DNA of 54,445 nt, from the IMG/VR virus record IMGVR_UViG_3300025138_000051, positions 1 through 54,445 of that record. One strand, given 5' to 3'. This document shows positions 8,314 to 53,190 of this stretch, piece by piece. The notes under the pieces were generated by a model that searched no databases, was not told the origin of the DNA, and saw nothing but the letters and a program-made list of their open reading frames with translations. Both the position numbers and the translations under genes were made by a program. Each line of letters opens with the position of its first letter. Within the stretch, counting starts at the first letter, position 1. Source of the DNA: a virus. Lineage: Duplodnaviria; Caudoviricetes.

Positions 8314-9548
8314 TGTTTAAATTTAGAGATTATCAGAAAAGAATTGTTAGACAGGGTTCTAAAATATTAAAGAACCATAACTTGTTATACTTAACTATGG
8401 AAGTTAGAACAGGTAAAACTTTCACAAGTTTAGGCATCTGCAATAAAATTAAAGCTAATAATGTTTTATTCATCACAAAGAAAAAAGCAATTAGCAGTAT
8501 TGAAGATGACTTTAATACTTTAAAACCTAACTACAAAATTACCGTAATTAATTATGAGAGCTTACATAAAATATCTACAGATCAACATTTTGATGTTTTA
8601 ATATTAGATGAAGCACACTCTATTGGAGCATACCCTAAAAAGAACAAACGTTGTTTACAAATACAAAGTTTGATTTTGATTCATGACCCTAAAGTTATAT
8701 TGCTTTCAGGTACTCCTACTCCAGAGTCTTTTTCTCAAATGTATCATCAGGTTTGTTCTATTCCTGGAAACCCTTTCTCAGATTATAAAAACTTTTATCA
8801 GTTTTGTAAACATCATGTAGATGTTAAACAACGTAGAATAAATGGTTTGTTTATGAATGATTACTCAAGAGGTAGAGAATCTATTTTAAAAGAAATGAAA
8901 CCATATACAATATCGTTTACTCAGAAAGAAGCAGGGTTTGTAGTTGATACTAATGAGGAAGTTTTGTGGGTTGATTTAGAAGATTCAACAAAAGAAATGA
9001 TTAAAACTTTGAATAAAGATAGAATACTCAAGGGGTCTGAAGAAGTTGTATTAGCCGATACTCCTGTAAAGCTTATGACAAAAACACATCAATTGTGTTC
9101 TGGGACAGTTAAGTTTGAATCAGGAAAGTCTCAAGTTGTAGATTACAGTAAAGCTAATTTTATTCATAAAAAATTTGGTAATAAAAAAATAGGTATATTT
9201 TATAAATTCAAAGAAGAGTTGAATGCACTAAAAGAGGTGTATAAAGATGACCTATGCATTGATCTTGAGACCTTTAACTCAACTAATAAAACCATAGCTT
9301 TGCAAATTGTTAGTGGGCGAGAAGGTATATCATTACGTCAAGCTGAAGCTTTAATATACTACAACATAGACTTCAGTGCAACCAGCTATTGGCAAAGCAG
9401 AGACCGTATGACTACTAAGGAAAGACTTTATAATAAAATCTATTGGATCTTCTCAAAAGGAGGTATCGAATCAGATATATACAAGGCTGTTATAAAGAAA
9501 AAAGACTACACCTTAAATCATTTTAAAAGAGATTTATTAGATTTGTAA
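8313..9548 (+). CDS. SF2 (SNF2-like) helicase
   Basis: RDYQ, RTGKT, ILDEAH, LSGTP, GREGISL, QSRDR; TAATG coupling to the primase gene. Confidence 0.9.
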   Translation: MFKFRDYQKRIVRQGSKILKNHNLLYLTMEVRTGKTFTSLGICNKIKANNVLFITKKKAISSIEDDFNTLKPNYKITVINYESLHKISTDQHFDVLILDEAHSIGAYPKKNKRCLQIQSLILIHDPKVILLSGTPTPESFSQMYHQVCSIPGNPFSDYKNFYQFCKHHVDVKQRRINGLFMNDYSRGRESILKEMKPYTISFTQKEAGFVVDTNEEVLWVDLEDSTKEMIKTLNKDRILKGSEEVVLADTPVKLMTKTHQLCSGTVKFESGKSQVVDYSKANFIHKKFGNKKIGIFYKFKEELNALKEVYKDDLCIDLETFNSTNKTIALQIVSGREGISLRQAEALIYYNIDFSATSYWQSRDRMTTKERLYNKIYWIFSKGGIESDIYKAVIKKKDYTLNHFKRDLLDL

Positions 9549-9549
9549 C

Positions 9550-9756
9550 ATGAGGTTAATTAAATTTTTATTAATTTGGATTAGTCAAAATTTAGCAATA
9601 CCTTTTTGGGTAGTAGGACATATTCATTTATCTATTCATAATTTTCATGACTTAATTGAACTACTTTCTTCAATAGGTATGAACTTAATAGTAGCAATTG
9701 GATTTGTATTAGATTACAGAAATGACAGAGCAACAAATACAAGTAAAAAAGATTAA
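9550..9756 (+). CDS. small membrane protein with His-rich loop
   Basis: Two hydrophobic segments around GHIHLSIHNFHD. Confidence 0.7.
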   Translation: MRLIKFLLIWISQNLAIPFWVVGHIHLSIHNFHDLIELLSSIGMNLIVAIGFVLDYRNDRATNTSKKD

Positions 9757-42335: not shown

Positions 42336-42866
42336 TTAAAATGTAGACCCTGTAGTCAAAACTCTATAATAAACATTAATAAACATTTTTCCATCTCCTT
42401 GCGAAGGATTGGCTGATGTTTTTAAGTTTAAAGCTTGTCCAGGGGATAGGGTTACAGAGTTACCGCTTCCTACCATAACTTTAGCAACATTATTAGCAGC
42501 ACTATTTACAGATGCTTTAGGCAAAGTTCCCATTAACACAGAATTATAATCAAATGTTAAGTCATTTCCAAAATTATAAACTGTTGTTCCTGGAACAAAA
42601 TTAATAGAAATAGATAATATATCTATAACCTTGTCTGATCCAGGAGATGCAATTAAAACTTTAGATGTAGAAGCTAAGGTTTGTAACTGTGCTGATGTAA
42701 CCTCTACATGAGCCACCAACGTATCTATCCCAAAAAATGATTGTAGTTGACTAACAGTACAAGACTTAGTCATTAACTGGTTTTCTTTGTCAGTTAAAAT
42801 TAAATAATCATCTAAATCTAAATTTAGTATTTGTGGATATGCCGTTGTGTTACTTATTCTTGCCAT
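42336..42866 (-). CDS. short fibre/spike-like virion protein
   Basis: N-terminus resembles that of 51190-51915; beta-rich C-terminal domain. Confidence 0.65.
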   Translation of the reverse strand: MARISNTTAYPQILNLDLDDYLILTDKENQLMTKSCTVSQLQSFFGIDTLVAHVEVTSAQLQTLASTSKVLIASPGSDKVIDILSISINFVPGTTVYNFGNDLTFDYNSVLMGTLPKASVNSAANNVAKVMVGSGNSVTLSPGQALNLKTSANPSQGDGKMFINVYYRVLTTGSTF

Positions 42867-43124
42867 TTATTCTTTTTTTTCTTCAGGCTGAGTAACCTCT
42901 CCTGTTTGTAAATTTATAGTAGCGTTTTCGCCATATTTTTCAGCAAGTACTTTTTCTTGCTTTTTAAAATCTTTTTGAACTTCACTTAATTCTGCAACTA
43001 ATTGTTGTTGTTGAATTACAGCATCTGCAATCGCAACTTTAGTTTGCATAAATTTTTGATTTAATTCTTGAATGACTACTAATTCATCTGCATTCAATTT
43101 TACGGACTCTTCTTTTTTACTCAT
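42867..43124 (-). CDS. coiled-coil hypothetical protein
   Basis: 85 aa, ends YGENATINLQTGE. Confidence 0.8.
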   Translation of the reverse strand: MSKKEESVKLNADELVVIQELNQKFMQTKVAIADAVIQQQQLVAELSEVQKDFKKQEKVLAEKYGENATINLQTGEVTQPEEKKE

Positions 43125-43156
43125 AATATTAAATTTAATTTGTTATTTATTTTATA

Positions 43157-43164
43157 CAAATATA
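43157..43164 (-). promoter_or_regulatory. late promoter -7 element TATATTTG
   Basis: Intergenic between 43124 and 43181. Confidence 0.65.
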
Positions 43165-43180
43165 CTAATTTTATTTTTGC

Positions 43181-43513
43181 CTAAATAGAATCTTGCCACG
43201 TAAAATACAACTCTTCATTTACTGGACTTTTTTCAACTTGTATGGCTGCAGAAATAGTTGCTTTCATTTCATCTACATCTACAGATCCTTCTAACCAACC
43301 TATCACTACGTTTTCAAAAGCTTCCGTATTTTCATATGGCACAAAAGGATCACCAAATTTATAAGTAAAATCTTGTTCTCCATTTTCAGCACTCATATAA
43401 ACGTCTTCTTGTCCTACATAAGTCCACTGCACTTTGTGTATTACATTGCTTTCGCCTTCTGATTCAACATAAGCTTCCATTTTTGAAATTACCCATTTAT
43501 AATTAATTGCCAT
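43181..43513 (-). CDS. putative tail-fibre assembly/chaperone protein
   Basis: Acidic 110 aa directly after the fibre gene; Y.W.I...V.W...FVPY...VIGWL pattern. Confidence 0.6.
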   Translation of the reverse strand: MAINYKWVISKMEAYVESEGESNVIHKVQWTYVGQEDVYMSAENGEQDFTYKFGDPFVPYENTEAFENVVIGWLEGSVDVDEMKATISAAIQVEKSPVNEELYFTWQDSI

Positions 43514-43517
43514 AATT

Positions 43518-46500
43518 TTATTTTTCTAATTGTTCTATTCTTGCTTTTAAATCTTCTATCATCACTTGTTGCTCCTTTACCGCATTTATTAGTACAGCAG
43601 TTAAATCTGAGTATGCTACTGACTTAAGTCCGTCATCTTCATTTTCTAATATAAGTTCTGGTAAAACAGCTTCAACTTCTTGTGCTATAACACCAACTTT
43701 TTTTACTTCGGTGTTGAAATCAGTTCTGTTGTAATAAACACCTCTCATAGCTTGAACCTTACCAATACAATCGTCTATTTCAACTATATTTTCTTTTGTT
43801 CTTATATCAGATAATTGAGTTAACGTACCATTAATAGTCATGTTGGCAGTTGAAGGGAAAAATCTATATCTAATTGACCCTCCATCTCTCCAGTATACAT
43901 TACCACAATTCATGTCAAAGTAAGTATCGGCATTATTTGTGTGAAATCTAAAGTGATTTGCTGATGCGTTATTTCCTAAATAGAAATCACCTACGCCAGT
44001 AGTTGTTCTTACTAATGAAGTTCCGTTTACATGAAATTTTGCTAATGGTGTTACACCAATACCACAATCTTGATTTATTACAGTAGCAAAATTATTAACT
44101 GATATTCTATAAGCTCCACCAGTTGCAAATTGTATTGTATCCGAAGCTGGGTTAAACATACCAGTGTTTGTATCACTTGTAAAAGCAATACTTGGTTGAA
44201 AAGCATTTCCACTTGTATATCTACCACGTCCTGCTACAATATTCCCTACCGCTTCAAGGTTACCTTGAGATCTAATGTTTGTGGATACGTTTAATTCAGA
44301 TCCATTAGCATCAAGTCTTACATCAAAATCAGATGTACCTGTGTTGCTTGTGTGAAAATCTATATATCTACCTATTTCAGTTACTGCACCAACAATCGCT
44401 ACTCCACCATTATGCCAAGCTCCACTTACTGGTTTTAATACACTGATAGTACCTGTGCTTGTAATTGTTCCACCTAATACAGGTGATGTTGTAGCAATTG
44501 ACGTAACTCCAGAAGAAGTTTTATAACCAGCGTCATTTGGAAATAAATTATTAGGAATATTGCTTGGTGTTGTTTTGAATTGACTACCACTTGATGTGGT
44601 TATTGCAAACGAGTCAGATGATGTCATATCTCCTGTTGCGGAACTTAATTCTGATAAATCAACATTTAAAGTTACACTACCTGAAGTACCGCCACCGTCT
44701 AATAAAGTTCCAGCAGTTACTGCTGTAATATCTCCAGTGTTAGTTGTAAATCCTCTACCGTTAGTTAATTGATTATTATTTGTAATAGTACAATTTAATG
44801 TAACTGCTCCACTTGAACCGCCACCACTCATGTTTGTACCTGCAGTAACACTTGTTATATCTCCCGAATTATTAGTGAATGGCAAGTTACTTATAGTTGA
44901 TTTAGCAACATTATTTGTAGATGCACTACTAACAAGTATTTGATCTGAAGTACTTAGCGTACCTGTAGCTGTGTTAGGTGCATCTAATATAATATTATCA
45001 CTTCCTGCGTAATCTACACTAATAGTAGGCGTTCCACTTGAACCACCACCTGTTAATCCATCTCCAGCAGTTACACCATCTATATCACCAGTACCACCTG
45101 TAGTTACTGCGGTCACTCTTCCATAAGCGTCTACAGTTATATTATCTATTTTAACAGAGTTGGATGTAGAACCATATGTTCCAGCTCCAACACCACCTGT
45201 TGCCATATTAAGTGTGACAGAGCCAGATGTGCCTCCTCCAGTAAGATTAGTTCCTGCAGTTACAGCAGTAATGTCTCCAGTATTAGATGTAAATCCAGCA
45301 TCGTTACTAAATATACTAAGCCCTATTTCATTAGCGGCTTTTCTTCTTTCAGCACCACTATCTAATACTATGAACTCATCAGTACCAGTCATCGTAGCTG
45401 TCATATCAGTAAGTTCTGATAAATCTAAAGTAATAGTAAAGTTAACGTTGGCAGATGAATTAGCGGAAAATGTTTGTGTACCACCGTCAAGACCTGTACC
45501 TGTGGACATTGTAAGCAAACCATTACCAACTGAAGGTATTGAAGATGAGGTTATATATCCTGCACCATTTGTAAGTTGGTTATTGTTTGTAATATAATTT
45601 GCATTAGTTGCACCTGTATAACCAAGTGTGGCTAATGTAGTTGTGGCAGATGTTAGACTTGTAACATGACCATATGTATCTAATGTTACATCTTGTATAT
45701 ATGTATTGCCTGAGTTATTTACAGAACCTTGACTTGATGTATCTGCATGTGATAAAGTTCCAGTTGAAGTTATTGTTCCACCTGTTAATCCACCACCAGT
45801 TGCTACAGAAGTTACACCTGAAACTACTGAACTTGAAGCTGCTCCTATAAAAGTTCTAATAGCAGAAGCATCACTACAAAAACGTATGTAGTTGTCTGTT
45901 GTACTGGTTCTAAATGCTATTGCTCCACCTATAGTACTTTGATTTTGATAATTAGATCTAAATAATCTTGCGTTAATATCAGCAGCTGAATCTCTATAAG
46001 CAATAGTACTTGCTGTTGCAGCAGTTGTTGCGTTTGAAGTTACTGTAAATGTAGTGTTACCACTTTGATTTGCAGTAGCATCCATAGAACCGCTTAATCC
46101 ATTACCACTTGTTCTTCCGTCTATTTGACCATTACCAACTGATGGTAAAGATGATGATGTTATGTATCCAGCTCCATTTGTTATAGCATTATTATTTAAT
46201 GATATATTAGCTGATCCATTAAATGAAACACCAGCTATAGTTCTTGCTGTTTGCAATACAGTTGCAGATCCTGCGTTACCAGATACTGTTGTTTGAACAA
46301 TATTAGGTTTTGTATTAGTTATAGTTAATGTTCCTCCACTTGAAGTAGAAGTGAGTTCAGACTGTATACCATTACCCTGTGCAAAAGTTACTGTTTCGCC
46401 ATTTGTAACAGTACTTGTTTCTGTTCCATTCCCTTCTTTTAACGTCCAAGAAGACATATTACCTACTTGTGAATTATCTACCTTTGTCCATGTTGTATTA

Positions 46501-48947
46501 GCAAACACAGCCCAATCACCTATTGCCCAGTCTGTTATTCCATTTAAGTTAGTAGAGCCTGCAACAGACACTATGTAATAGTCCCCTGATGTGCCGACAC
46601 TACTTTGTAATGTTGGTGTGTTTGTACTTGCGTTCCATGTACCCTCAAATTGAACCACTCCAGTAAGAGCAGTATTAATAGCTGTTTGTATTTGCGCTCC
46701 TGTTGCTAAACTTGAAGAACTACCACTTACTGCGGCAGTTATTGGTGTTACTGTTGTTGTTGTACCACTGCTTACTGTAAGTGTAGATAAATTACCTGAG
46801 TTTACTTGATTAACTTGACCAGTAGCTCCAGTTGATACAGCAGTTACTCTACCGTATGCATCAACTGTAATATTATCTATCTTAGTACTGTTAGATGTAG
46901 AACCATATGTTCCAGCTCCAACACCACCTGTTGCCATGTTTAATGTTACACTACCCGATGTTCCACCGCCAGTTAAATTAGTACCAGCGTTTACCGCTGT
47001 TATATCTCCAACGTTAGATGTAAATCCAGAATCATTACTAAATATACTTAGACCTATTTCACCTGCACGTTTTCTTCTTTCTGCACTACTGTCTAACACT
47101 ATGAATTCATCATTAGTATTCATTGCCGCAGTCATATCAGTAAGTTCTGATAAATCTAAAGTTATTGAAAATGATCCAGAAGTAGTAATAGTTCCACCAC
47201 CATCTAAACCTGTACCTGTTGAAAGAGCTACACTTGTTACAGTACCCGTATTAGTTGTATAACCAGAATCATTAGTCCATTGAGATATGTTGTTACTTGC
47301 TAAACCTAATGTTACTGAACCAGATGTTCCACCACCTGTTAATTTATTTCCTGCTACTACTGCTGTTATATCACCTTGAGGTACACCAGCTATAGCATTA
47401 TCTACATATGTTTTATTCGCTGCGTCAGTTCCAGATGAAACTGTATCAACACCTTGTATGCGTCCTGTTCCTGTAAGAGTAATACCTGTTTTTACAGTTA
47501 ATACGCCAGGTAGGTAGGACGTGGCATCAGCTCTATTAATATATGCATTACTTCTTCCTGCCCATCCACTGCTCCAATTATCAGGAGAAGAGTTAATTTC
47601 CAGTCCTGCCTCAGCATTTAAATAAACTGATTCGCCTGTTTGACCTGTAGCATAAGAAGATGACTCACCTGCATTAAGTACAAGTTGTTGCCCACCATAT
47701 GTTCTTACTTCATTAGTTCTTATACCTGCTGCATTAGAGAAATCAGTTCGCTCTGTAAATGTTTTAAGATTTGCAATTGTTTGCGCACCTGAAGTTCTTA
47801 CTACTGTGCTGTCTACTAATAATCCTGTAGATGATTGTGATAATCCATCACCAGCTCCTACAGTTAAAGTACCTGTTGAGGTTATTGTACCTCCAGATAT
47901 TCCATTACCAGTTGCAACGGATGTTACACCTTGGGCGTCACTATTAGCTGATATAGACGTAACGTGTCCTGTAGCATTTACTGTTACAGTAGCTCTTGCA
48001 TATGAACCTGCAGTCACACCTGAATTAGCATGTGAAATTGTAACCGATCCACTTGATCCACCCCCAGTTATTGGTGAGGTTGTACTTACATTTGTAATAT
48101 CACCTGCATTATTGGTAAAAGGTAAATTGCTAATAGTCGATTTAGAAACATTACTTGTTGAAGCAGCACTAACAAGTATTCTGTCTGACGTAGATAAAGT
48201 TCCAGAAGCCTCAGTTGGAGCATCTAATATAATATTATCGCTCCCTAAATAATCTACGCTTATTGTAGGTGTTCCACTTGTACCTCCACCACTCAATCCA
48301 TCTCCTGCAGTAATACCGTTTATATCGCCAGTACTTCCTGTACTTACGGCAGTTACTCTACCATATGCATCAACTGTAATGTTGTCTATTTTTATATTGT
48401 CAGATGTTGAGCCATAAGTTCCTGCTCCAACCCCTCCAGTAGCCATGTTTAAAGTAACACTGCCAGAAGTTCCTCCTCCTGTTAAATTAGTACCAGCATT
48501 CACTGCTGTTATATCTCCAACGTTAGATGTAAACCCTGCGTCATTGTTAAATATACTTAGCCCTATTTCGTTAGCTGCTTTTCTACGTTCTGCACCAGAG
48601 TCTAACACTATAAACTCATCAGTTCCAACCATTGTGGCTGTCATATCTGTAAGTTCTGATAAATCTAAAGTAATTGTGCCTGAGGTTGAAAATGACCCAT
48701 CTAAACCAACTCCAGTTGATACAGATGTTACAGTTCCTTGAGGATTACTAAACGATGTGTTTAATGTTACTCCACCTTGTAGGCCTATCGAAAGAGTTAT
48801 AGTAGAACTACCAGAATCACTAAAACTATTTACAGAATTAGCGTATCCTGCATTCCATTGACTTGAATTACCACCAGAAGCTGTTATTACTCCTGTTGTG
48901 GTTAATGTTCCGTCTATTGACTGGTTTTCTAAAAATCTAATTGCCAT
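43518..48947 (-). CDS. long tail fibre with C-terminal intramolecular chaperone (peptidase S74-like)
   Basis: G/T/S-rich repeats; LSDIRTKENI...GVIAQEVE...KSVAY...LINAVKE autocleavage domain. Confidence 0.9.
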   Translation of the reverse strand: MAIRFLENQSIDGTLTTTGVITASGGNSSQWNAGYANSVNSFSDSGSSTITLSIGLQGGVTLNTSFSNPQGTVTSVSTGVGLDGSFSTSGTITLDLSELTDMTATMVGTDEFIVLDSGAERRKAANEIGLSIFNNDAGFTSNVGDITAVNAGTNLTGGGTSGSVTLNMATGGVGAGTYGSTSDNIKIDNITVDAYGRVTAVSTGSTGDINGITAGDGLSGGGTSGTPTISVDYLGSDNIILDAPTEASGTLSTSDRILVSAASTSNVSKSTISNLPFTNNAGDITNVSTTSPITGGGSSGSVTISHANSGVTAGSYARATVTVNATGHVTSISANSDAQGVTSVATGNGISGGTITSTGTLTVGAGDGLSQSSTGLLVDSTVVRTSGAQTIANLKTFTERTDFSNAAGIRTNEVRTYGGQQLVLNAGESSSYATGQTGESVYLNAEAGLEINSSPDNWSSGWAGRSNAYINRADATSYLPGVLTVKTGITLTGTGRIQGVDTVSSGTDAANKTYVDNAIAGVPQGDITAVVAGNKLTGGGTSGSVTLGLASNNISQWTNDSGYTTNTGTVTSVALSTGTGLDGGGTITTSGSFSITLDLSELTDMTAAMNTNDEFIVLDSSAERRKRAGEIGLSIFSNDSGFTSNVGDITAVNAGTNLTGGGTSGSVTLNMATGGVGAGTYGSTSNSTKIDNITVDAYGRVTAVSTGATGQVNQVNSGNLSTLTVSSGTTTTVTPITAAVSGSSSSLATGAQIQTAINTALTGVVQFEGTWNASTNTPTLQSSVGTSGDYYIVSVAGSTNLNGITDWAIGDWAVFANTTWTKVDNSQVGNMSSWTLKEGNGTETSTVTNGETVTFAQGNGIQSELTSTSSGGTLTITNTKPNIVQTTVSGNAGSATVLQTARTIAGVSFNGSANISLNNNAITNGAGYITSSSLPSVGNGQIDGRTSGNGLSGSMDATANQSGNTTFTVTSNATTAATASTIAYRDSAADINARLFRSNYQNQSTIGGAIAFRTSTTDNYIRFCSDASAIRTFIGAASSSVVSGVTSVATGGGLTGGTITSTGTLSHADTSSQGSVNNSGNTYIQDVTLDTYGHVTSLTSATTTLATLGYTGATNANYITNNNQLTNGAGYITSSSIPSVGNGLLTMSTGTGLDGGTQTFSANSSANVNFTITLDLSELTDMTATMTGTDEFIVLDSGAERRKAANEIGLSIFSNDAGFTSNTGDITAVTAGTNLTGGGTSGSVTLNMATGGVGAGTYGSTSNSVKIDNITVDAYGRVTAVTTGGTGDIDGVTAGDGLTGGGSSGTPTISVDYAGSDNIILDAPNTATGTLSTSDQILVSSASTNNVAKSTISNLPFTNNSGDITSVTAGTNMSGGGSSGAVTLNCTITNNNQLTNGRGFTTNTGDITAVTAGTLLDGGGTSGSVTLNVDLSELSSATGDMTSSDSFAITTSSGSQFKTTPSNIPNNLFPNDAGYKTSSGVTSIATTSPVLGGTITSTGTISVLKPVSGAWHNGGVAIVGAVTEIGRYIDFHTSNTGTSDFDVRLDANGSELNVSTNIRSQGNLEAVGNIVAGRGRYTSGNAFQPSIAFTSDTNTGMFNPASDTIQFATGGAYRISVNNFATVINQDCGIGVTPLAKFHVNGTSLVRTTTGVGDFYLGNNASANHFRFHTNNADTYFDMNCGNVYWRDGGSIRYRFFPSTANMTINGTLTQLSDIRTKENIVEIDDCIGKVQAMRGVYYNRTDFNTEVKKVGVIAQEVEAVLPELILENEDDGLKSVAYSDLTAVLINAVKEQQVMIEDLKARIEQLEK
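44853..45431 (-). repeat. fibre internal repeat, copy 3 (long form; boundaries approximate)
   Basis: LDLSELTDMT...DAYGRVTAV...ISVDY...NLPFTNN.GDIT. Confidence 0.9.
46827..47161 (-). repeat. fibre internal repeat, copy 2 (short form; boundaries approximate)
   Basis: LDLSELTDMT...DAYGRVTAVSTG. Confidence 0.9.
48095..48670 (-). repeat. fibre internal repeat, copy 1 (long form; boundaries approximate)
   Basis: LDLSELTDMT...DAYGRVTAV...ISVDY...NLPFTNN.GDIT. Confidence 0.9.
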
Positions 48948-48967
48948 AAACTATTTAATTAAAGTTA

Positions 48968-51175
48968 TTAAACAGTCTTACTAATCAATACTCTTACGTC
49001 ATTAGTTGCTATAGGACTGTTTGTTGCTATTGTTACTTGTGATGTGCTATTTCTAACAACTCCAGCATATACTGTGTCATATGTACTATTATCATATAAT
49101 TGTACTACAACATCTCTTGTGCCTAAATTGTGTGTTACTACATAACTTGTAGCAGAACCATTACCAATATTGGTAGAGTATGTTAAATTACTTGCTACAC
49201 ATGATTCAACTGCTGTACAAAAATCAGTTACTTGAGAAGCTGGGATTGCAATTGATTGTTCTGATGCCGCAGTTGCAACACCAAACTTATCAAATACAAT
49301 AGTAGACGTTTCAGTTGCTGATCCATAAGATCCTCCTACTCCATTATTTTTCATTTGTACCCAACCATTTCCAGTTGCAGTAAACGATGCAGAATCAAAT
49401 CCAGCAATACCTTTTGTTGTTGCTCCATCTGTAGATCCTGCTGTAGCAATACTTTGTCCAGATTGTACTATTGTATAATCCGATGCACTTGGCGTTGAAC
49501 CTGCTGCAATTGCATTATTTGCAAATATTAAATCTCCAACTTCTACAACTACTCCTAAAAACGATGTATTGTTTGAGTCTGTTACAGCAAAGTAATCACC
49601 TTGATCTAAAGCTACGTTACTTGCTCCAGTTAAAGCTGGACTATTTGTTATTGCATTATATCCTCCTTGGAATATTCCAACACCAGCCGCTATTGCTTGT
49701 ACCTGTGCTAAGTTAACACCGTCTGTACCTGCAGTACCAGTTTTTACATCTAATAATTTATTGTTTCCAAAATCAACATCTCCTTCAGCATCACCAAATT
49801 GTTGTAAGTGAATATCTGAAAGTAATACTTTTTGTTCTGAATTTAAAGAGGTAACAAAAGGTAAGAAATCTCCTGATGCCATTCCTGTTAGTGTTCCTAA
49901 TTCTTCTAAAGCTAAATTAACAGTAATAACTTGCGCTCCTGCAATATTTGTTGAAATACCAGTACCACCAGCAATATCTACAACTTCACCAGTTGTTACA
50001 GTTTGGTCAGATCCACTATCTGCACGTGCTATCCAATTTGACATTGTACCAGTACCACCAGTGTAAGCCACAGTTACAACACCGCTTCCATTGTTTGTTG
50101 TACTTATATTCGATCCTGCTGCAATAGTTATTGAGCCTTGATTTCCAATTGTTGAGTCACTTCCAGTTGATGCTGATAATGTTAAATTATCAAATGGTTT
50201 ACTGTTTGTAATAGTTATAGTGTCAGTAGCTGATGCTGCTGTCGTTATACCAGTTCCTTGTAAAAAAGAAGCAGTGTTGCCGTTTGTGATTGTTTGTGGA
50301 GTACCACTTGATCCTGCAAGAGTCCAAGAAGTCATTGTTCCTGATCCACCGCTTGCAGCTGCTGTAATTCTACCTTGTGCATCAACCGTAATATCTGCTG
50401 AGGTATAAGAACCTGCAGTAACTGCGGTATTATCTAAGTTTATTGTAACTGTATCTGTCGCACTTACCACTGAACTTAATGCTGTACCACCAGCAATATC
50501 TACAGTGTTTCCACTTGCTATAGTTTGATTTGAACCAGAATCAGCAGTTAATGTCCAACCAGAATAATTATCAAAAGGTAAAAGACTAATAGTTGCATCT
50601 GCAACATTGTTATTTGAAGCAGCACTTACAAGTATTTTGTCTGAACCAGAAAGTGTTCCAGTTGCAGTACTTGGTGCAGCTAAAATTACGTTATCAGTTC
50701 CTGTATAATCAACTTGTATATCATCAGCGTTAGCTGTTATACCAAGTCCGCCTATAACATTTAAAGTAGGTATCGGGCCAGATAAATTTGTACCTGTCAT
50801 ACCTGAACCAGCTACAATAGCTGTTATGTCTCCTTGAGGTATTGTTGGGAATGTTGTTAAATTTCCTGCTCCATCAATATATTGAGAAGACGAACCAACA
50901 ACACTTATGGCTAAAGTTCCTGATCCTGTAATAGGAGAACCAGCTACACTAAAAGCATTACCACCATGAGATTGGGCTACAGATGTAACTGAACCACCAC
51001 TTGTTCCAAAAGTTTGCCAAGCAGAACCATCGTAATATTTCATTACATTAGTATCTGTTCTGTATATCATTTGTCCTTCACCTACTACTGAAGGATCTGC
51101 AGAAAGATTTTGAACTTTAAAGTTCTGTAACTCCCCGTTGGTTAAATCGATGTTTGATAAATATTTTATTGCCAT
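48968..51175 (-). CDS. tail fibre segment protein (735 aa)
   Basis: Repeated W.L.ADSG..QT...G..V.IAGG units, ITVDAQGR, C-terminal VTHNLG domain. Confidence 0.8.
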   Translation of the reverse strand: MAIKYLSNIDLTNGELQNFKVQNLSADPSVVGEGQMIYRTDTNVMKYYDGSAWQTFGTSGGSVTSVAQSHGGNAFSVAGSPITGSGTLAISVVGSSSQYIDGAGNLTTFPTIPQGDITAIVAGSGMTGTNLSGPIPTLNVIGGLGITANADDIQVDYTGTDNVILAAPSTATGTLSGSDKILVSAASNNNVADATISLLPFDNYSGWTLTADSGSNQTIASGNTVDIAGGTALSSVVSATDTVTINLDNTAVTAGSYTSADITVDAQGRITAAASGGSGTMTSWTLAGSSGTPQTITNGNTASFLQGTGITTAASATDTITITNSKPFDNLTLSASTGSDSTIGNQGSITIAAGSNISTTNNGSGVVTVAYTGGTGTMSNWIARADSGSDQTVTTGEVVDIAGGTGISTNIAGAQVITVNLALEELGTLTGMASGDFLPFVTSLNSEQKVLLSDIHLQQFGDAEGDVDFGNNKLLDVKTGTAGTDGVNLAQVQAIAAGVGIFQGGYNAITNSPALTGASNVALDQGDYFAVTDSNNTSFLGVVVEVGDLIFANNAIAAGSTPSASDYTIVQSGQSIATAGSTDGATTKGIAGFDSASFTATGNGWVQMKNNGVGGSYGSATETSTIVFDKFGVATAASEQSIAIPASQVTDFCTAVESCVASNLTYSTNIGNGSATSYVVTHNLGTRDVVVQLYDNSTYDTVYAGVVRNSTSQVTIATNSPIATNDVRVLISKTV

Positions 51176-51189
51176 TATATTATTTTTAC

Positions 51190-51915
51190 TTAGTTAAAAA
51201 ATGCTTTACCTGCAAAAGCAGATTTAAATGTTATTGTTACTTGGTTTAAACTGTTATAATCTACTTCTCCATATACGGTTGTATTTGCCGAATCTACTAC
51301 TGATACTGATGGGTACTTGTTTAAATTATGTGTTACAACCCATGTTGATGCTGCAGTACTTTGTGTAAATACAAAAGTTTTATCAGCTGCCGCTGTAGCA
51401 TTATACGTCAACAAAGATATAAAATAATCTTCGTTCTTCTTCAAGCTACCATTACCAGCTTTGAACGTTAATGTTATGTCGTAAAAATTATTGTTGTTAG
51501 GATCTTTTGCTTCATTATCCCATTGAAATATAGCAAACTGACTCATGTCATTACACTGAGTTATAAGTATATTGCTGGTTTTAAATGGAGTATTATATAA
51601 TGATGATACATCTATAGGTGGTGTAGCCTCGTTACTGTAAGAATCAAACTTACTTAATACAAATGAATTGATTCCACTAAACTGTACAACATCTGCTCCA
51701 TATGGATCGAAACTTATAGTTGCTGGTTTTAATACTCCTTCCGTTTGATACGTATATCTTAGTAATTGACTTTGAGAAGCTTTTTTGTTTATAAAATTAG
51801 CAACATCTCCAGCAGTAAAGTTTTTAGTTTGATTATTATTCTGAGAGTCAGAACCAATCCACTTATCTGCTGATACTATATTTTCATCATTCGGGTATGT
51901 TGCTATTCTTGCCAT
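51190..51915 (-). CDS. proximal fibre/anchor protein (241 aa)
   Basis: N-terminal MARIATYP...IGSD...TKNF motif; C-terminal VTHNL domain. Confidence 0.7.
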   Translation of the reverse strand: MARIATYPNDENIVSADKWIGSDSQNNNQTKNFTAGDVANFINKKASQSQLLRYTYQTEGVLKPATISFDPYGADVVQFSGINSFVLSKFDSYSNEATPPIDVSSLYNTPFKTSNILITQCNDMSQFAIFQWDNEAKDPNNNNFYDITLTFKAGNGSLKKNEDYFISLLTYNATAAADKTFVFTQSTAASTWVVTHNLNKYPSVSVVDSANTTVYGEVDYNSLNQVTITFKSAFAGKAFFN

Positions 51916-52383: not shown

Positions 52384-52563
52384 TCATTTATTTTTTTTAT
52401 CTTGATCGTATTTTTTTTGAAGTAACCACCATTTATTTATTGTGTAACCTATACTGACTATTAATAATAATAACTTTAAAATCATGTCAAGGTTTGTGAA
52501 TGATAACGCAAGAGTACCTGCATTAAGAACATATAATTTTATATCTGACATCCAGTTATTCAT
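52384..52563 (-). CDS. small membrane protein (59 aa), holin/antiholin-like
   Basis: Own translation MNNWMSDIKLYVLNAGTLALSFTNLDMILKLLLLIVSIGYTINKWWLLQKKYDQDKKNK. Confidence 0.75.
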   Translation of the reverse strand: MNNWMSDIKLYVLNAGTLALSFTNLDMILKLLLLIVSIGYTINKWWLLQKKYDQDKKNK

Positions 52564-52632: not shown

Positions 52633-53190
52633 TTACCATATTGCTAAACAAGTATTTCTTGCAGCAGCTGTTGTTGAGGTTGAGTATAATTGAACTATCT
52701 GAATTGGTAAATAATTACCAACTGGGAAATTTTCAAACGTTACAGAATTACCTGATATTGTTTTTACACGAATATTTACATATCTCGGATCAGCTGTTCC
52801 TGCTCCTGGAGTTATATCTTGTAATATAGTTGCGCTTGAACCAACATATAACAAACATCCTTCTGATGAATTAATTCTCGAAGAACCATTTGGCCCTCCT
52901 AAAAATATTTCGTAATCTTCTGGAGAAGTAAATATGTTTGCACTTACCGATAATATTGTTGAAGTATCTATTGCTGTTACTATTGCTGATGTATTGTCTG
53001 TAGTATTGTAAACTATATCATTTACACTTACATTAGAAAAGTCAGCTCCAACATCCACAAGTTTATTTGCCGTAGAGGCTGTTGTTGTTCCAGATAAAAC
53101 TGGAAGGTCTGGTGCTGGAATTGGAATTGTATCACTGGCAATGATCTCTCTTGCTAAGCCTGTGTTTACGGTAATTTTTGGGTATGCCAT
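52633..53190 (-). CDS. virion structural protein
   Basis: Contains a GT.T....NKLVD..A.F....VNDIV module also seen in 30624-31592; G.YLPIQI C-terminus. Confidence 0.7.
   Translation of the reverse strand: MAYPKITVNTGLAREIIASDTIPIPAPDLPVLSGTTTASTANKLVDVGADFSNVSVNDIVYNTTDNTSAIVTAIDTSTILSVSANIFTSPEDYEIFLGGPNGSSRINSSEGCLLYVGSSATILQDITPGAGTADPRYVNIRVKTISGNSVTFENFPVGNYLPIQIVQLYSTSTTAAARNTCLAIW

Follow-up and report, generated by a model that had tools for sequence, protein, structure and literature searches.

How are the consecutive fibre proteins of a tailed phage joined to one another, and can the joints be recognized in the order and the ends of their genes? This question is raised by a 54,445-nucleotide stretch of DNA from a marine virus of the Caudoviricetes (Duplodnaviria; IMG/VR record IMGVR_UViG_3300025138_000051), which was analyzed at its full length and is referred to here as the window. 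In its region 42336-51915, six consecutive minus-strand genes encode a 241-amino acid (aa) protein (A), the fibre proteins B and C, a 110-aa protein, an 85-aa protein and a 176-aa protein (D). The original prediction for this region held that A and B end in homologous domains, designated THNL after a sequence motif, that each THNL domain is a socket capturing the N-terminal plug of the next gene product, and that a long segmented fibre is daisy-chained in this way. Our in silico analysis showed that the first pairing, of a THNL-ended A (domain THNL_A) with the conserved N-terminal domain of B (B_N), is not due to chance.

A and B End in Homologous Domains and B and C Start Alike

The C-terminal domains of A and B share 42% identity over 50 aa (BLASTP E 3e-4), and a six-frame scan of the window with hidden Markov models (HMMs) found THNL in A and B only, each copy also matching the model of the other subtype at about 1e-5. 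The claimed homology of the two domains was thus borne out, as were the starts given for B (MAIKYLSNIDL) and C (MAIRFLENQSI), which agree with the sequences of the open reading frames (ORFs), and the S74-type chaperone at the end of C, which was identified by Pfam as Peptidase_S74 (PF13884, E 2.1e-11; score 44.4 bits, cut-off 22). In the window, both THNL-ended genes (2/2) are followed by a gene with an MAI[KR][YF]L start, as had been stated, and a regular-expression search for MAI[KR][FY]L-type starts among the six-frame ORFs of the window returned B, C and a 68-aa ORF at 9541-9753 (+) only.

The A-B Pair Is Conserved in Both Search Directions and in Many Phyla

HMMs were built for THNL_A, for the corresponding domain of B (THNL_B) and for B_N, and three independent samplings of loci were taken: 80 viral contigs seeded by THNL_A alone, 79 new contigs seeded by B_N alone, and 16 loci from prokaryote genomes assigned to Proteobacteria, Firmicutes, Bacteroidota, Chloroflexota and two archaeal-labelled metagenome-assembled genomes (MAGs). 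The results showed that an adjacent gene starting with B_N was present in 77/80 of the THNL_A-seeded contigs, or 41/44 after dereplication at 90%; among the exceptions, B_N was located 470 nt off behind an inserted HNH gene in one contig and was undetected in two, where the next gene starts similarly. Seeding by B_N gave the reciprocal picture, since the upstream ORF ended in THNL_A in 74/79 contigs (45/47 dereplicated), with THNL_A nearby in two of the exceptions and no upstream DNA in the other three. At the prokaryote-genome loci the next gene carried a strong B_N in 15 of 16 cases, and in the sixteenth it was a THNL_B-ended gene. In the sampled sets THNL_A always ended at the stop codon, in stop-to-stop ORFs of 73-806 aa, the rest of A ranging from almost nothing to about 740 residues, and across lineages THNL_A is the only conserved part of A. 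Given that the remainder of A is variable and that THNL_A is always found at the stop codon, the conserved unit consists of the last 65 residues of one gene together with the first 60 of the next.

When A was used as a tblastn query, the domain at its C-terminus was recovered from prophages of Streptococcus and from phages of Rhodobacter and Dinoroseobacter. Cultured phages in which a gene with THNL_A is followed by one with B_N and THNL_B are T12 (gp61-gp62), R5C (gp039-040), RcCWillis (gp15-16) and RcZahn (gp37-38), and in the alphaproteobacterial phages there is a third gene with a C-like start (R5C gp041, RcCWillis gp17, RcZahn gp39); that of RcZahn starts MADRVLSNYRIEG, compared with MAIRFLENQSIDG in the window. 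In two loci (L128 and L218) A is followed by a 180-aa protein with a weak B_N match and a THNL_A end, and then by B; a protein that has both the plug and the THNL_A end and lies between A and B is the product expected of a chainable connector. The B_N domain is missing from the gene that follows A in four of the marine relatives, where an MAI.FL..IDG start, i.e., the first ~12 residues, is kept.

The junction between A and B is occupied by other genes in some loci. In L134 and L199 an HNH-endonuclease-like ORF (motif HDHATGAVRGLLCQKCN) is situated exactly in the A-B junction, which is 470 nt wide there, and this position hints at a homing element with the conserved joint as its target. In several marine relatives (L021 1732-2124, L024 10689-11129, L034, L036, L041 and L064) a 130-146-aa gene, which the window lacks, is found between A and B; the start of its product is like a signal peptide, and the final residues, ...LSLTYKF, resemble the end of an outer-membrane beta-barrel. 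In phage T12 (L002, 3656-5195) and related Javan prophages the pair is located after the endolysin, just upstream of the speA region, and is followed by a 59-aa ORF that resembles a fibre fragment and contains KDYVDNKV. The two MAGs labelled Pacearchaeota and Thermoplasmatota (L250 and L262) carry the pair on contigs of 425 kb and 427 kb, respectively, which may represent proviruses of archaea or errors of binning.

Conservation Is Highest at the Two Ends of B and at the Start of C

B_N is the only invariably conserved part of B across lineages, and it is retained while the length of B ranges from 197 to 1035 aa. Its first ~12 residues are the most constant element, with the consensus MA+KFLxxIDL. 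In 35 dereplicated modules the identity of B_N (38%) and THNL_B (41%) exceeded that of the middle of B (30%), and the first 14 residues of C had a median identity of 36%, which dropped to 23% in residues 15-100 and to 21% in the final 100. Such a pattern would be in line with a conserved interface at each end of B and with a variable C that recognizes the host.

The N-terminus of B matches a PHROG annotated as 'virion structural protein', and C matches tail-fibre PHROGs (E 1.7e-20), its C-terminal part matching PHROGs named 'long tail fiber protein distal subunit'. No Pfam match was obtained for B at E<=0.1, and Pfam searches with 23 B_N members gave weak matches only, to Mtd_N in 2/23 (best E 0.0065) and to DUF2793 in 2/23 (0.023). 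Sequence searches of the PDB with B and with the A family profile found no meaningful match, and the B_N profile found no significant match there, four chains at E 0.08-0.41 being judged chance. B and C have shaft segments in common (46-62% identity), and C is internally repetitive (residues 75-304 resemble 1146-1384 at 80% identity, and 84-216 resemble 591-719 at 82%), which together point to recent duplication and exchange between fibre genes. Small genes also occur beside fibres of this kind: a 120-133-aa gene whose start, MATIFNWDCKTV, differs from that of the DUF7936 gene of the window lies between B and C in two loci (L005 5345-5707 and L006 7072-7473), and a 120-124-aa gene precedes a further MAIR-type fibre in L071, L076 and L082. 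The 110-133-aa genes near C-type fibres may be fibre-specific helpers.

The Step From B to C Is Enriched and Not General

The order of genes in the marine clade was read in 80 related viral loci, where A, B and C are followed, sometimes after small genes, by a gene of about 84 aa and by D with its anchor. By HMMs, all of the 27 dereplicated complete modules (37 complete ones before dereplication) had the order A with THNL, B with THNL, C without THNL and, further on, D with the anchor. Over all clades, a B_N-like domain was found in 48/177 genes adjacent to a THNL_B end and in 31/2236 genes after other genes, both being redundant counts. A sliding position-specific scoring matrix (PSSM) of the core peptide was read against background genes, 12/1151 of which exceed the 99th percentile by construction; the matrix was trained on all clades. 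Among 114 non-redundant genes after THNL_B, 45 exceeded the 99th and 65 the 95th background percentile, and plug-like starts were enriched (Fisher odds ratio 62, p 3e-40, relatedness uncorrected). The starts of C in the marine clade almost always fit M-x-I-[KR]-F-[LK]-...-[IV]-D-G by eye, and the PSSM passed 12/27 of them; the C of the window is one that scored low though fitting the motif by eye. The co-occurrence across phage genomes that the original prediction called for was accordingly found to be strong from A to B, in both search directions and in many phyla, and from B to C to be an enrichment that is not general.

THNL Is a Widespread Ig-Like Domain

In an AlphaFold2 (AF2) model of A (mean predicted local distance difference test, pLDDT, 74), residues 1-49 were of low confidence; next came a beta domain in the centre, and the THNL sandwich at the end was confidently modelled, with a pLDDT of 81-91 for THNL_A. 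THNL_B modelled alone reached a pLDDT of 92.6 and consists of one helix and six strands. From the models and from its arrays, THNL is a compact all-beta sandwich of the 60-90 residue class that can occur in tandem, as immunoglobulin (Ig)-like domains do. Complex prediction for THNL_A (A 172-241) with B_N (B 1-65), one copy each, scored 0.03 and 0.09, the mark being 0.32, an outcome classed as 'no answer' and used neither for nor against binding.

At E<=1e-3 the THNL_A profile matched 17,520 representative proteins, of which 11,190 also passed E<=1e-10. Copy number was counted in the best 149 of the 17,520: a single C-terminal THNL was present in 58/149, and the A-type terminal copy is the commonest single-domain form. 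B_N was also present in 3/149, one of which (P0190) has B_N and three THNL copies. One protein of 670 aa (P0121) consists almost wholly of tandem THNL, with nine copies, and other THNL proteins are very large fibres, as long as 3215 aa, over which 4-7 copies are scattered, some of these fibres ending in Peptidase_S74 (P0134). Four PHROGs of unknown function match THNL_A. No NCBIfam model covering THNL or B_N was found, searches with eight multi-THNL proteins returned no curated family covering THNL, the ESM Atlas returned unnamed viral clusters alone, and among the papers listed by a literature search, which deal with ThnL enzymes or unrelated uses, none names the THNL motif as a phage domain. 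The only solved relative of THNL by sequence is PDB 9nx3_A, a 242-aa 'Capsid decoration protein' in which residues 171-240 are a B-type THNL (profile E 4.8e-6; phmmer E 2.2e-6 against RcZahn gp38). Its last 70 residues thus resemble the THNL_B of B, whereas its N-terminal 170 residues have no B_N match.

A and D Share an N-Terminal Anchor

As predicted, A and D share an N-terminal anchor, which was supported by BLASTP (34% identity over 44 aa, E 0.001) and by profile-profile comparison with hhalign (97.4% probability, E 1.2e-11, 42 columns). The anchor of A also matches two adjacent proteins of Elemovirus, gp34 and gp33. The A family comprises 601 proteins at E<=1e-3 among 756 candidates, and among the 120 matches listed nearly all relatives have lengths of 234-250 aa, their marine source contigs reaching ~60-77 kb; A itself had no Pfam match at E<=0.1 and no NCBIfam match. 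The closest homologue of A is on a 55-kb contig, and the window accordingly amounts to nearly a whole phage contig. In the relatives D keeps a fixed position with a body that ranges from 85 to 1108 aa. Rhodobacter phages have short Gly-X-Y runs before THNL_A, which suggests that A is trimeric.

Features and Surroundings of the Region

The coordinates of the genes and domains in the window are given in Table 1.

Table 1. Genes and domains of the region 42336-51915 (positions in the window).
Feature	Coordinates	Strand	Basis
A, putative adaptor, 241 aa, start MARIATYPNDEN	51190..51915	-	ORF; N-terminal anchor, central beta domain and C-terminal THNL_A
N-terminal anchor motif of A, residues 1-45	51781..51915	-	Homologous to the N-terminus of D
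THNL_A, A residues 174-241, beta-sandwich of ~65 aa ending at the stop codon	51193..51396	-	HMM E 4.6e-35
B, fibre protein, 735 aa, start MAIKYLSNIDL	48968..51175	-	ORF; B_N and C-terminal THNL_B
B_N, B residues 1-61	50993..51175	-	HMM E 1.1e-31; peptide MAIKYLSNIDL and Q-N-L ... G-Q-x-Y ... W hairpin motif
THNL_B and preceding helix, last 85 residues of B	48971..49225	-	HMM E 7.2e-39
C, long fibre, 1809 aa, start MAIRFLENQSI	43518..48947	-	ORF; internal repeats and C-terminal S74 chaperone
N-terminal peptide of C, MAIRFLENQSIDG, similar to the start of B	48909..48947	-	Sequence
Peptidase_S74 intramolecular chaperone, C residues 1713-1766	43650..43811	-	Pfam PF13884
DUF7936 protein, 110 aa, travels with the C-type fibre	43181..43513	-	Pfam PF25590, E 2.3e-14
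85-aa protein, always precedes D in relatives	42867..43124	-	Position kept in 80 related loci
D, appendage protein, 176 aa, start MARISNTTAYP	42336..42866	-	A-type N-terminal anchor

The 85-aa protein found no family match in Pfam and PHROG searches. Directly upstream of A is a gene for a 151-aa protein matching a holin PHROG, and downstream of the six genes are a 74-aa gene, a GroES-like gene and the genes for the large terminase and the portal. The G+C content is ~30-38%. The gene order of the region is shared with Flavobacterium Elemovirus phages, including two MA[RK]I-starting proteins, and a megablast search of the region against cultured phages gave no match. Near the holin, on its upstream side, a 185-aa protein at 52633-53190 (-) has a weak tail-fibre PHROG match (E 2e-4), and a 59-aa membrane-like ORF at 52384-52563 (-) resembles Elemovirus gp36.

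Comparison With Known Fibre Joints

In podophages KP32, K11 and KP34 of Klebsiella, a branching domain of the first receptor-binding protein (RBP1) is reported to be combined with a conserved docking peptide of the second, RBP2 (PMC6872550; PMC13352976). The likeness to the present genes is that a first protein with an anchor and a small docking domain is followed by a product with a conserved start, that parts are exchangeable, and that gene order would equal the order of attachment. In contrast to the docking domain of those phages, which is T4 gp10-like, the putative docking domain here is the THNL beta-sandwich; in addition, the presumed plug usually comprises an entire domain of 60 aa, and phages of many phyla carry the pair, which is known from sequence. 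B has the feature by which the second protein of branching RBPs (KP32 type, CBA120 and G7C) is recognized, namely a conserved start whatever the body. The only link of THNL to the T4 gp10-like fold is of middling strength: the THNL_A model aligned with residues 187-249 of CBA120 TSP4 (Z 5.5, root mean square deviation 1.9, 54 residues), a match that stands among many unrelated beta-sandwiches of similar Z.

The neck fibre of the Anabaena myophage A-1(L), formed by gp82-gp81-gp80, is a head-to-tail chain of beads, in which the 241-aa gp82 receives, on its C-terminal domain, the hairpins found at the N-terminus of gp81 (PMC10966104). Head-to-tail joining in the order of a single operon is what the present genes would share with it, whereas that chain is a homopolymer of gp81 beads and the genes here encode successive different fibres. 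Homology to this fibre was rejected, since the THNL_A, THNL_B and B_N HMMs gave E>0.1 on four candidate KU234533 proteins. The A-1(L) bead protein (L247, Nostoc phage A1, 9380-9886 (-), 168 aa) starts MSSNKFIGILNG, which is similar in style to the plug MA+KFL..I.L, the proteins themselves not being detectably homologous.

The head spike of RcGTA consists of a base pentamer of Rcc01079 and the head fibre Rcc01080, residues 2-10 of which plug into the base encoded by the neighbouring gene (PMC7296036). A plug at the very start of the fibre, as proposed here for B, is formed there by a hydrophobic repeat of ~10 residues, and the rest of that fibre is flexible; unlike the present pair, the base is a jelly-roll pentamer on the capsid and the plug, IALGLGLGL, has a different sequence. 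PDB sequence searches with A, B, B_N and RcZahn gp37-39 returned no RcGTA chain, the presence of these chains in the searched copy being unconfirmed. A paper on Rhodobacter phages reported relatives of rcc01080 only in other phages, RcWaterboi and RcapMu. By sequence searches and HMMs, as far as these went, no homology of the A/B pair to the Klebsiella, A-1(L), RcGTA or T4 systems was found. The long tail fibre of T4 is built end to end from the products of consecutive genes, gp34-gp35-gp36-gp37, and its distal segment carries host recognition. The fibre proposed here would be segmented in a like manner, the joints of the T4 fibre are not of the THNL/B_N kind, and the only link is given by the matches of C to the distal-subunit PHROGs. 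The coupling had originally been thought undescribed; the principle of docking is in fact already known from branched receptor-binding proteins, T4 and A-1(L), and it is the THNL_A/B_N domain pair that appears to be new.

An Accessory-Fibre Cassette and Its Alternatives

The explanation that we favour is that the region is a conserved, portable accessory-fibre cassette. A would be an adaptor that is fixed to the virion by its lineage-specific N-terminus, here the MARI anchor, and D, because it uses the MARI anchor too, would be an alternative appendage for the A-type site. THNL_A would be the docking site for fibre B, which would attach via B_N, and in the marine clade C, a long and variable fibre matured by its S74 chaperone, would most likely hang on the THNL_B of B, by homology, or alternative C-type fibres would compete for THNL_B; the result would be a segmented fibre A-B-C with host recognition in its distal part. 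The docking of B on A, with A as its docking adaptor, we consider slightly better than evenly likely, and the cassette explanation as a whole we regard as evenly balanced. The complete A-B-C chain is plausible, though less likely than not.

Several observations weigh against this explanation. The domains, their homology and their strict adjacency are read directly from the genes; a contact of THNL_A with B_N, the binding of C by THNL_B and the site of A on the virion are what we infer. Adjacent genes are co-inherited, so that neither adjacency nor enrichment counts as an independent observation of binding. In Erwinia phage pEa_SNUABM_22 (L084, 4989-7284), two consecutive jumbo-phage virion proteins of 541 and 198 aa (gp099 and gp098) each combine a start like that of B_N with a THNL-like end and, as an exception to the pairing, lack an upstream gene ending in THNL_A. 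The step to C is the weaker one: 49/114 of the non-redundant genes after THNL_B fell below the 95th percentile, the gene after B in T12, gp63, is not plug-like, and in T12 and many other contigs the module ends with B, whose THNL_B can hence be a terminal domain. Three or four fibres of the MAIR type occur beside just two THNL domains in L010, L071, L076 and L082, so that a strict chain of one socket to one plug fails there. These loci, the modules that end in THNL_B and the non-plug genes that follow it would be accommodated by a branched hub, in which B, C and further MAIR-type fibres attach by their common N-terminal peptide to one multivalent hub (the THNL of A, or a tail or neck protein) and THNL_B is a distal Ig-like tip, e.g., a weak glycan binder. 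The starts of B and C are alike and could compete for one site, and a B-type THNL ends the capsid decoration protein 9nx3, which indicates that the domain can be an outward-facing terminal one. Such a hub is nevertheless somewhat unlikely, given that in every one of the 27 dereplicated complete modules the two THNL ends equal in number the fibres after them (B and C), that THNL_B is as conserved as B_N and more so than the middle of B, which would be unusual for a host-recognition tip, and that proteins with a plug and a THNL_A end exist.

It is also conceivable that THNL and plug make no direct contact, THNL being a generic Ig-like spacer or decoration and A and B being neighbours as parts of one mobile cassette, held together by other surfaces, attached separately, or related through A acting as an assembly factor for B. 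The census points in this direction, with several THNL copies, up to nine in tandem, in 91/149 proteins and a last copy that is not C-terminal in 44/149; because of these tandem arrays and internal copies THNL is a general Ig-like building block, in a very large family. The fold comparisons agree, as Foldseek searches of the PDB with the full A model and the THNL_B model returned nothing at E<=0.001, and a wide VIA-align search with THNL (best Z 6.9) returned generic small beta-sandwiches of middling score. The original idea of THNL as a socket for the next plug is supported in part, by the A-B adjacency, and THNL is not a dedicated socket. We nonetheless consider the absence of contact improbable: only THNL_A of A and only B_N of B are conserved across lineages, so that other contact surfaces would need to be reinvented in every lineage, and the virion anchor that A has in common with D is a misfit for a pure assembly factor. 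A further alternative has to do with location alone and could be combined with each of these modes of attachment, namely that the cassette forms a fibre of the head or neck, such as a decoration or whisker, and not a tail fibre. The THNL_B-like end of 9nx3 is in keeping with this, as are a match of PHROG 2647, 'head decoration', to residues 456-732 of B, the position of the R5C genes next to the portal gene, the placement of the T12 and window cassettes after lysis genes (in the window, the holin) and outside the main tail block, the neck proteins of DT57C and P74-26 among the VIA-align matches of THNL, and the fact that the analogues RcGTA and A-1(L) are head or neck fibres. C, on the other hand, matches tail-fibre PHROGs and has an S74 chaperone, which is typical of tail fibres and spikes, the RcZahn genes follow tail genes, and Javan prophage records name the B gene 'tail fiber protein' (annotation only); a head or neck location is in our estimate rather unlikely.

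Implications

Returning to the docking of B_N on THNL_A, a wider proposal is that the pair is a universal portable connector of tailed phages, such that any THNL_A-ended virion protein could carry any B_N fibre and THNL fibre ends could add further plug-bearing fibres or small caps. This we put forward tentatively, as the lesser likelihood; the range of such a connector would extend from Firmicutes to Bacteroidota to Proteobacteria, and perhaps to archaeal viruses. If it holds, gene order would spell out the order of assembly, and tips would be swappable by recombination at the joint. The putative THNL_A/B_N connector is very widespread and apparently undescribed, and if it is a docking joint it would annotate very many 'hypothetical' phage genes (17,520 THNL representative proteins), would tell which protein bears which fibre in uncultured phages, and, being compact and independent of lineage, would lend itself to studies of the mounting and exchange of fibres.

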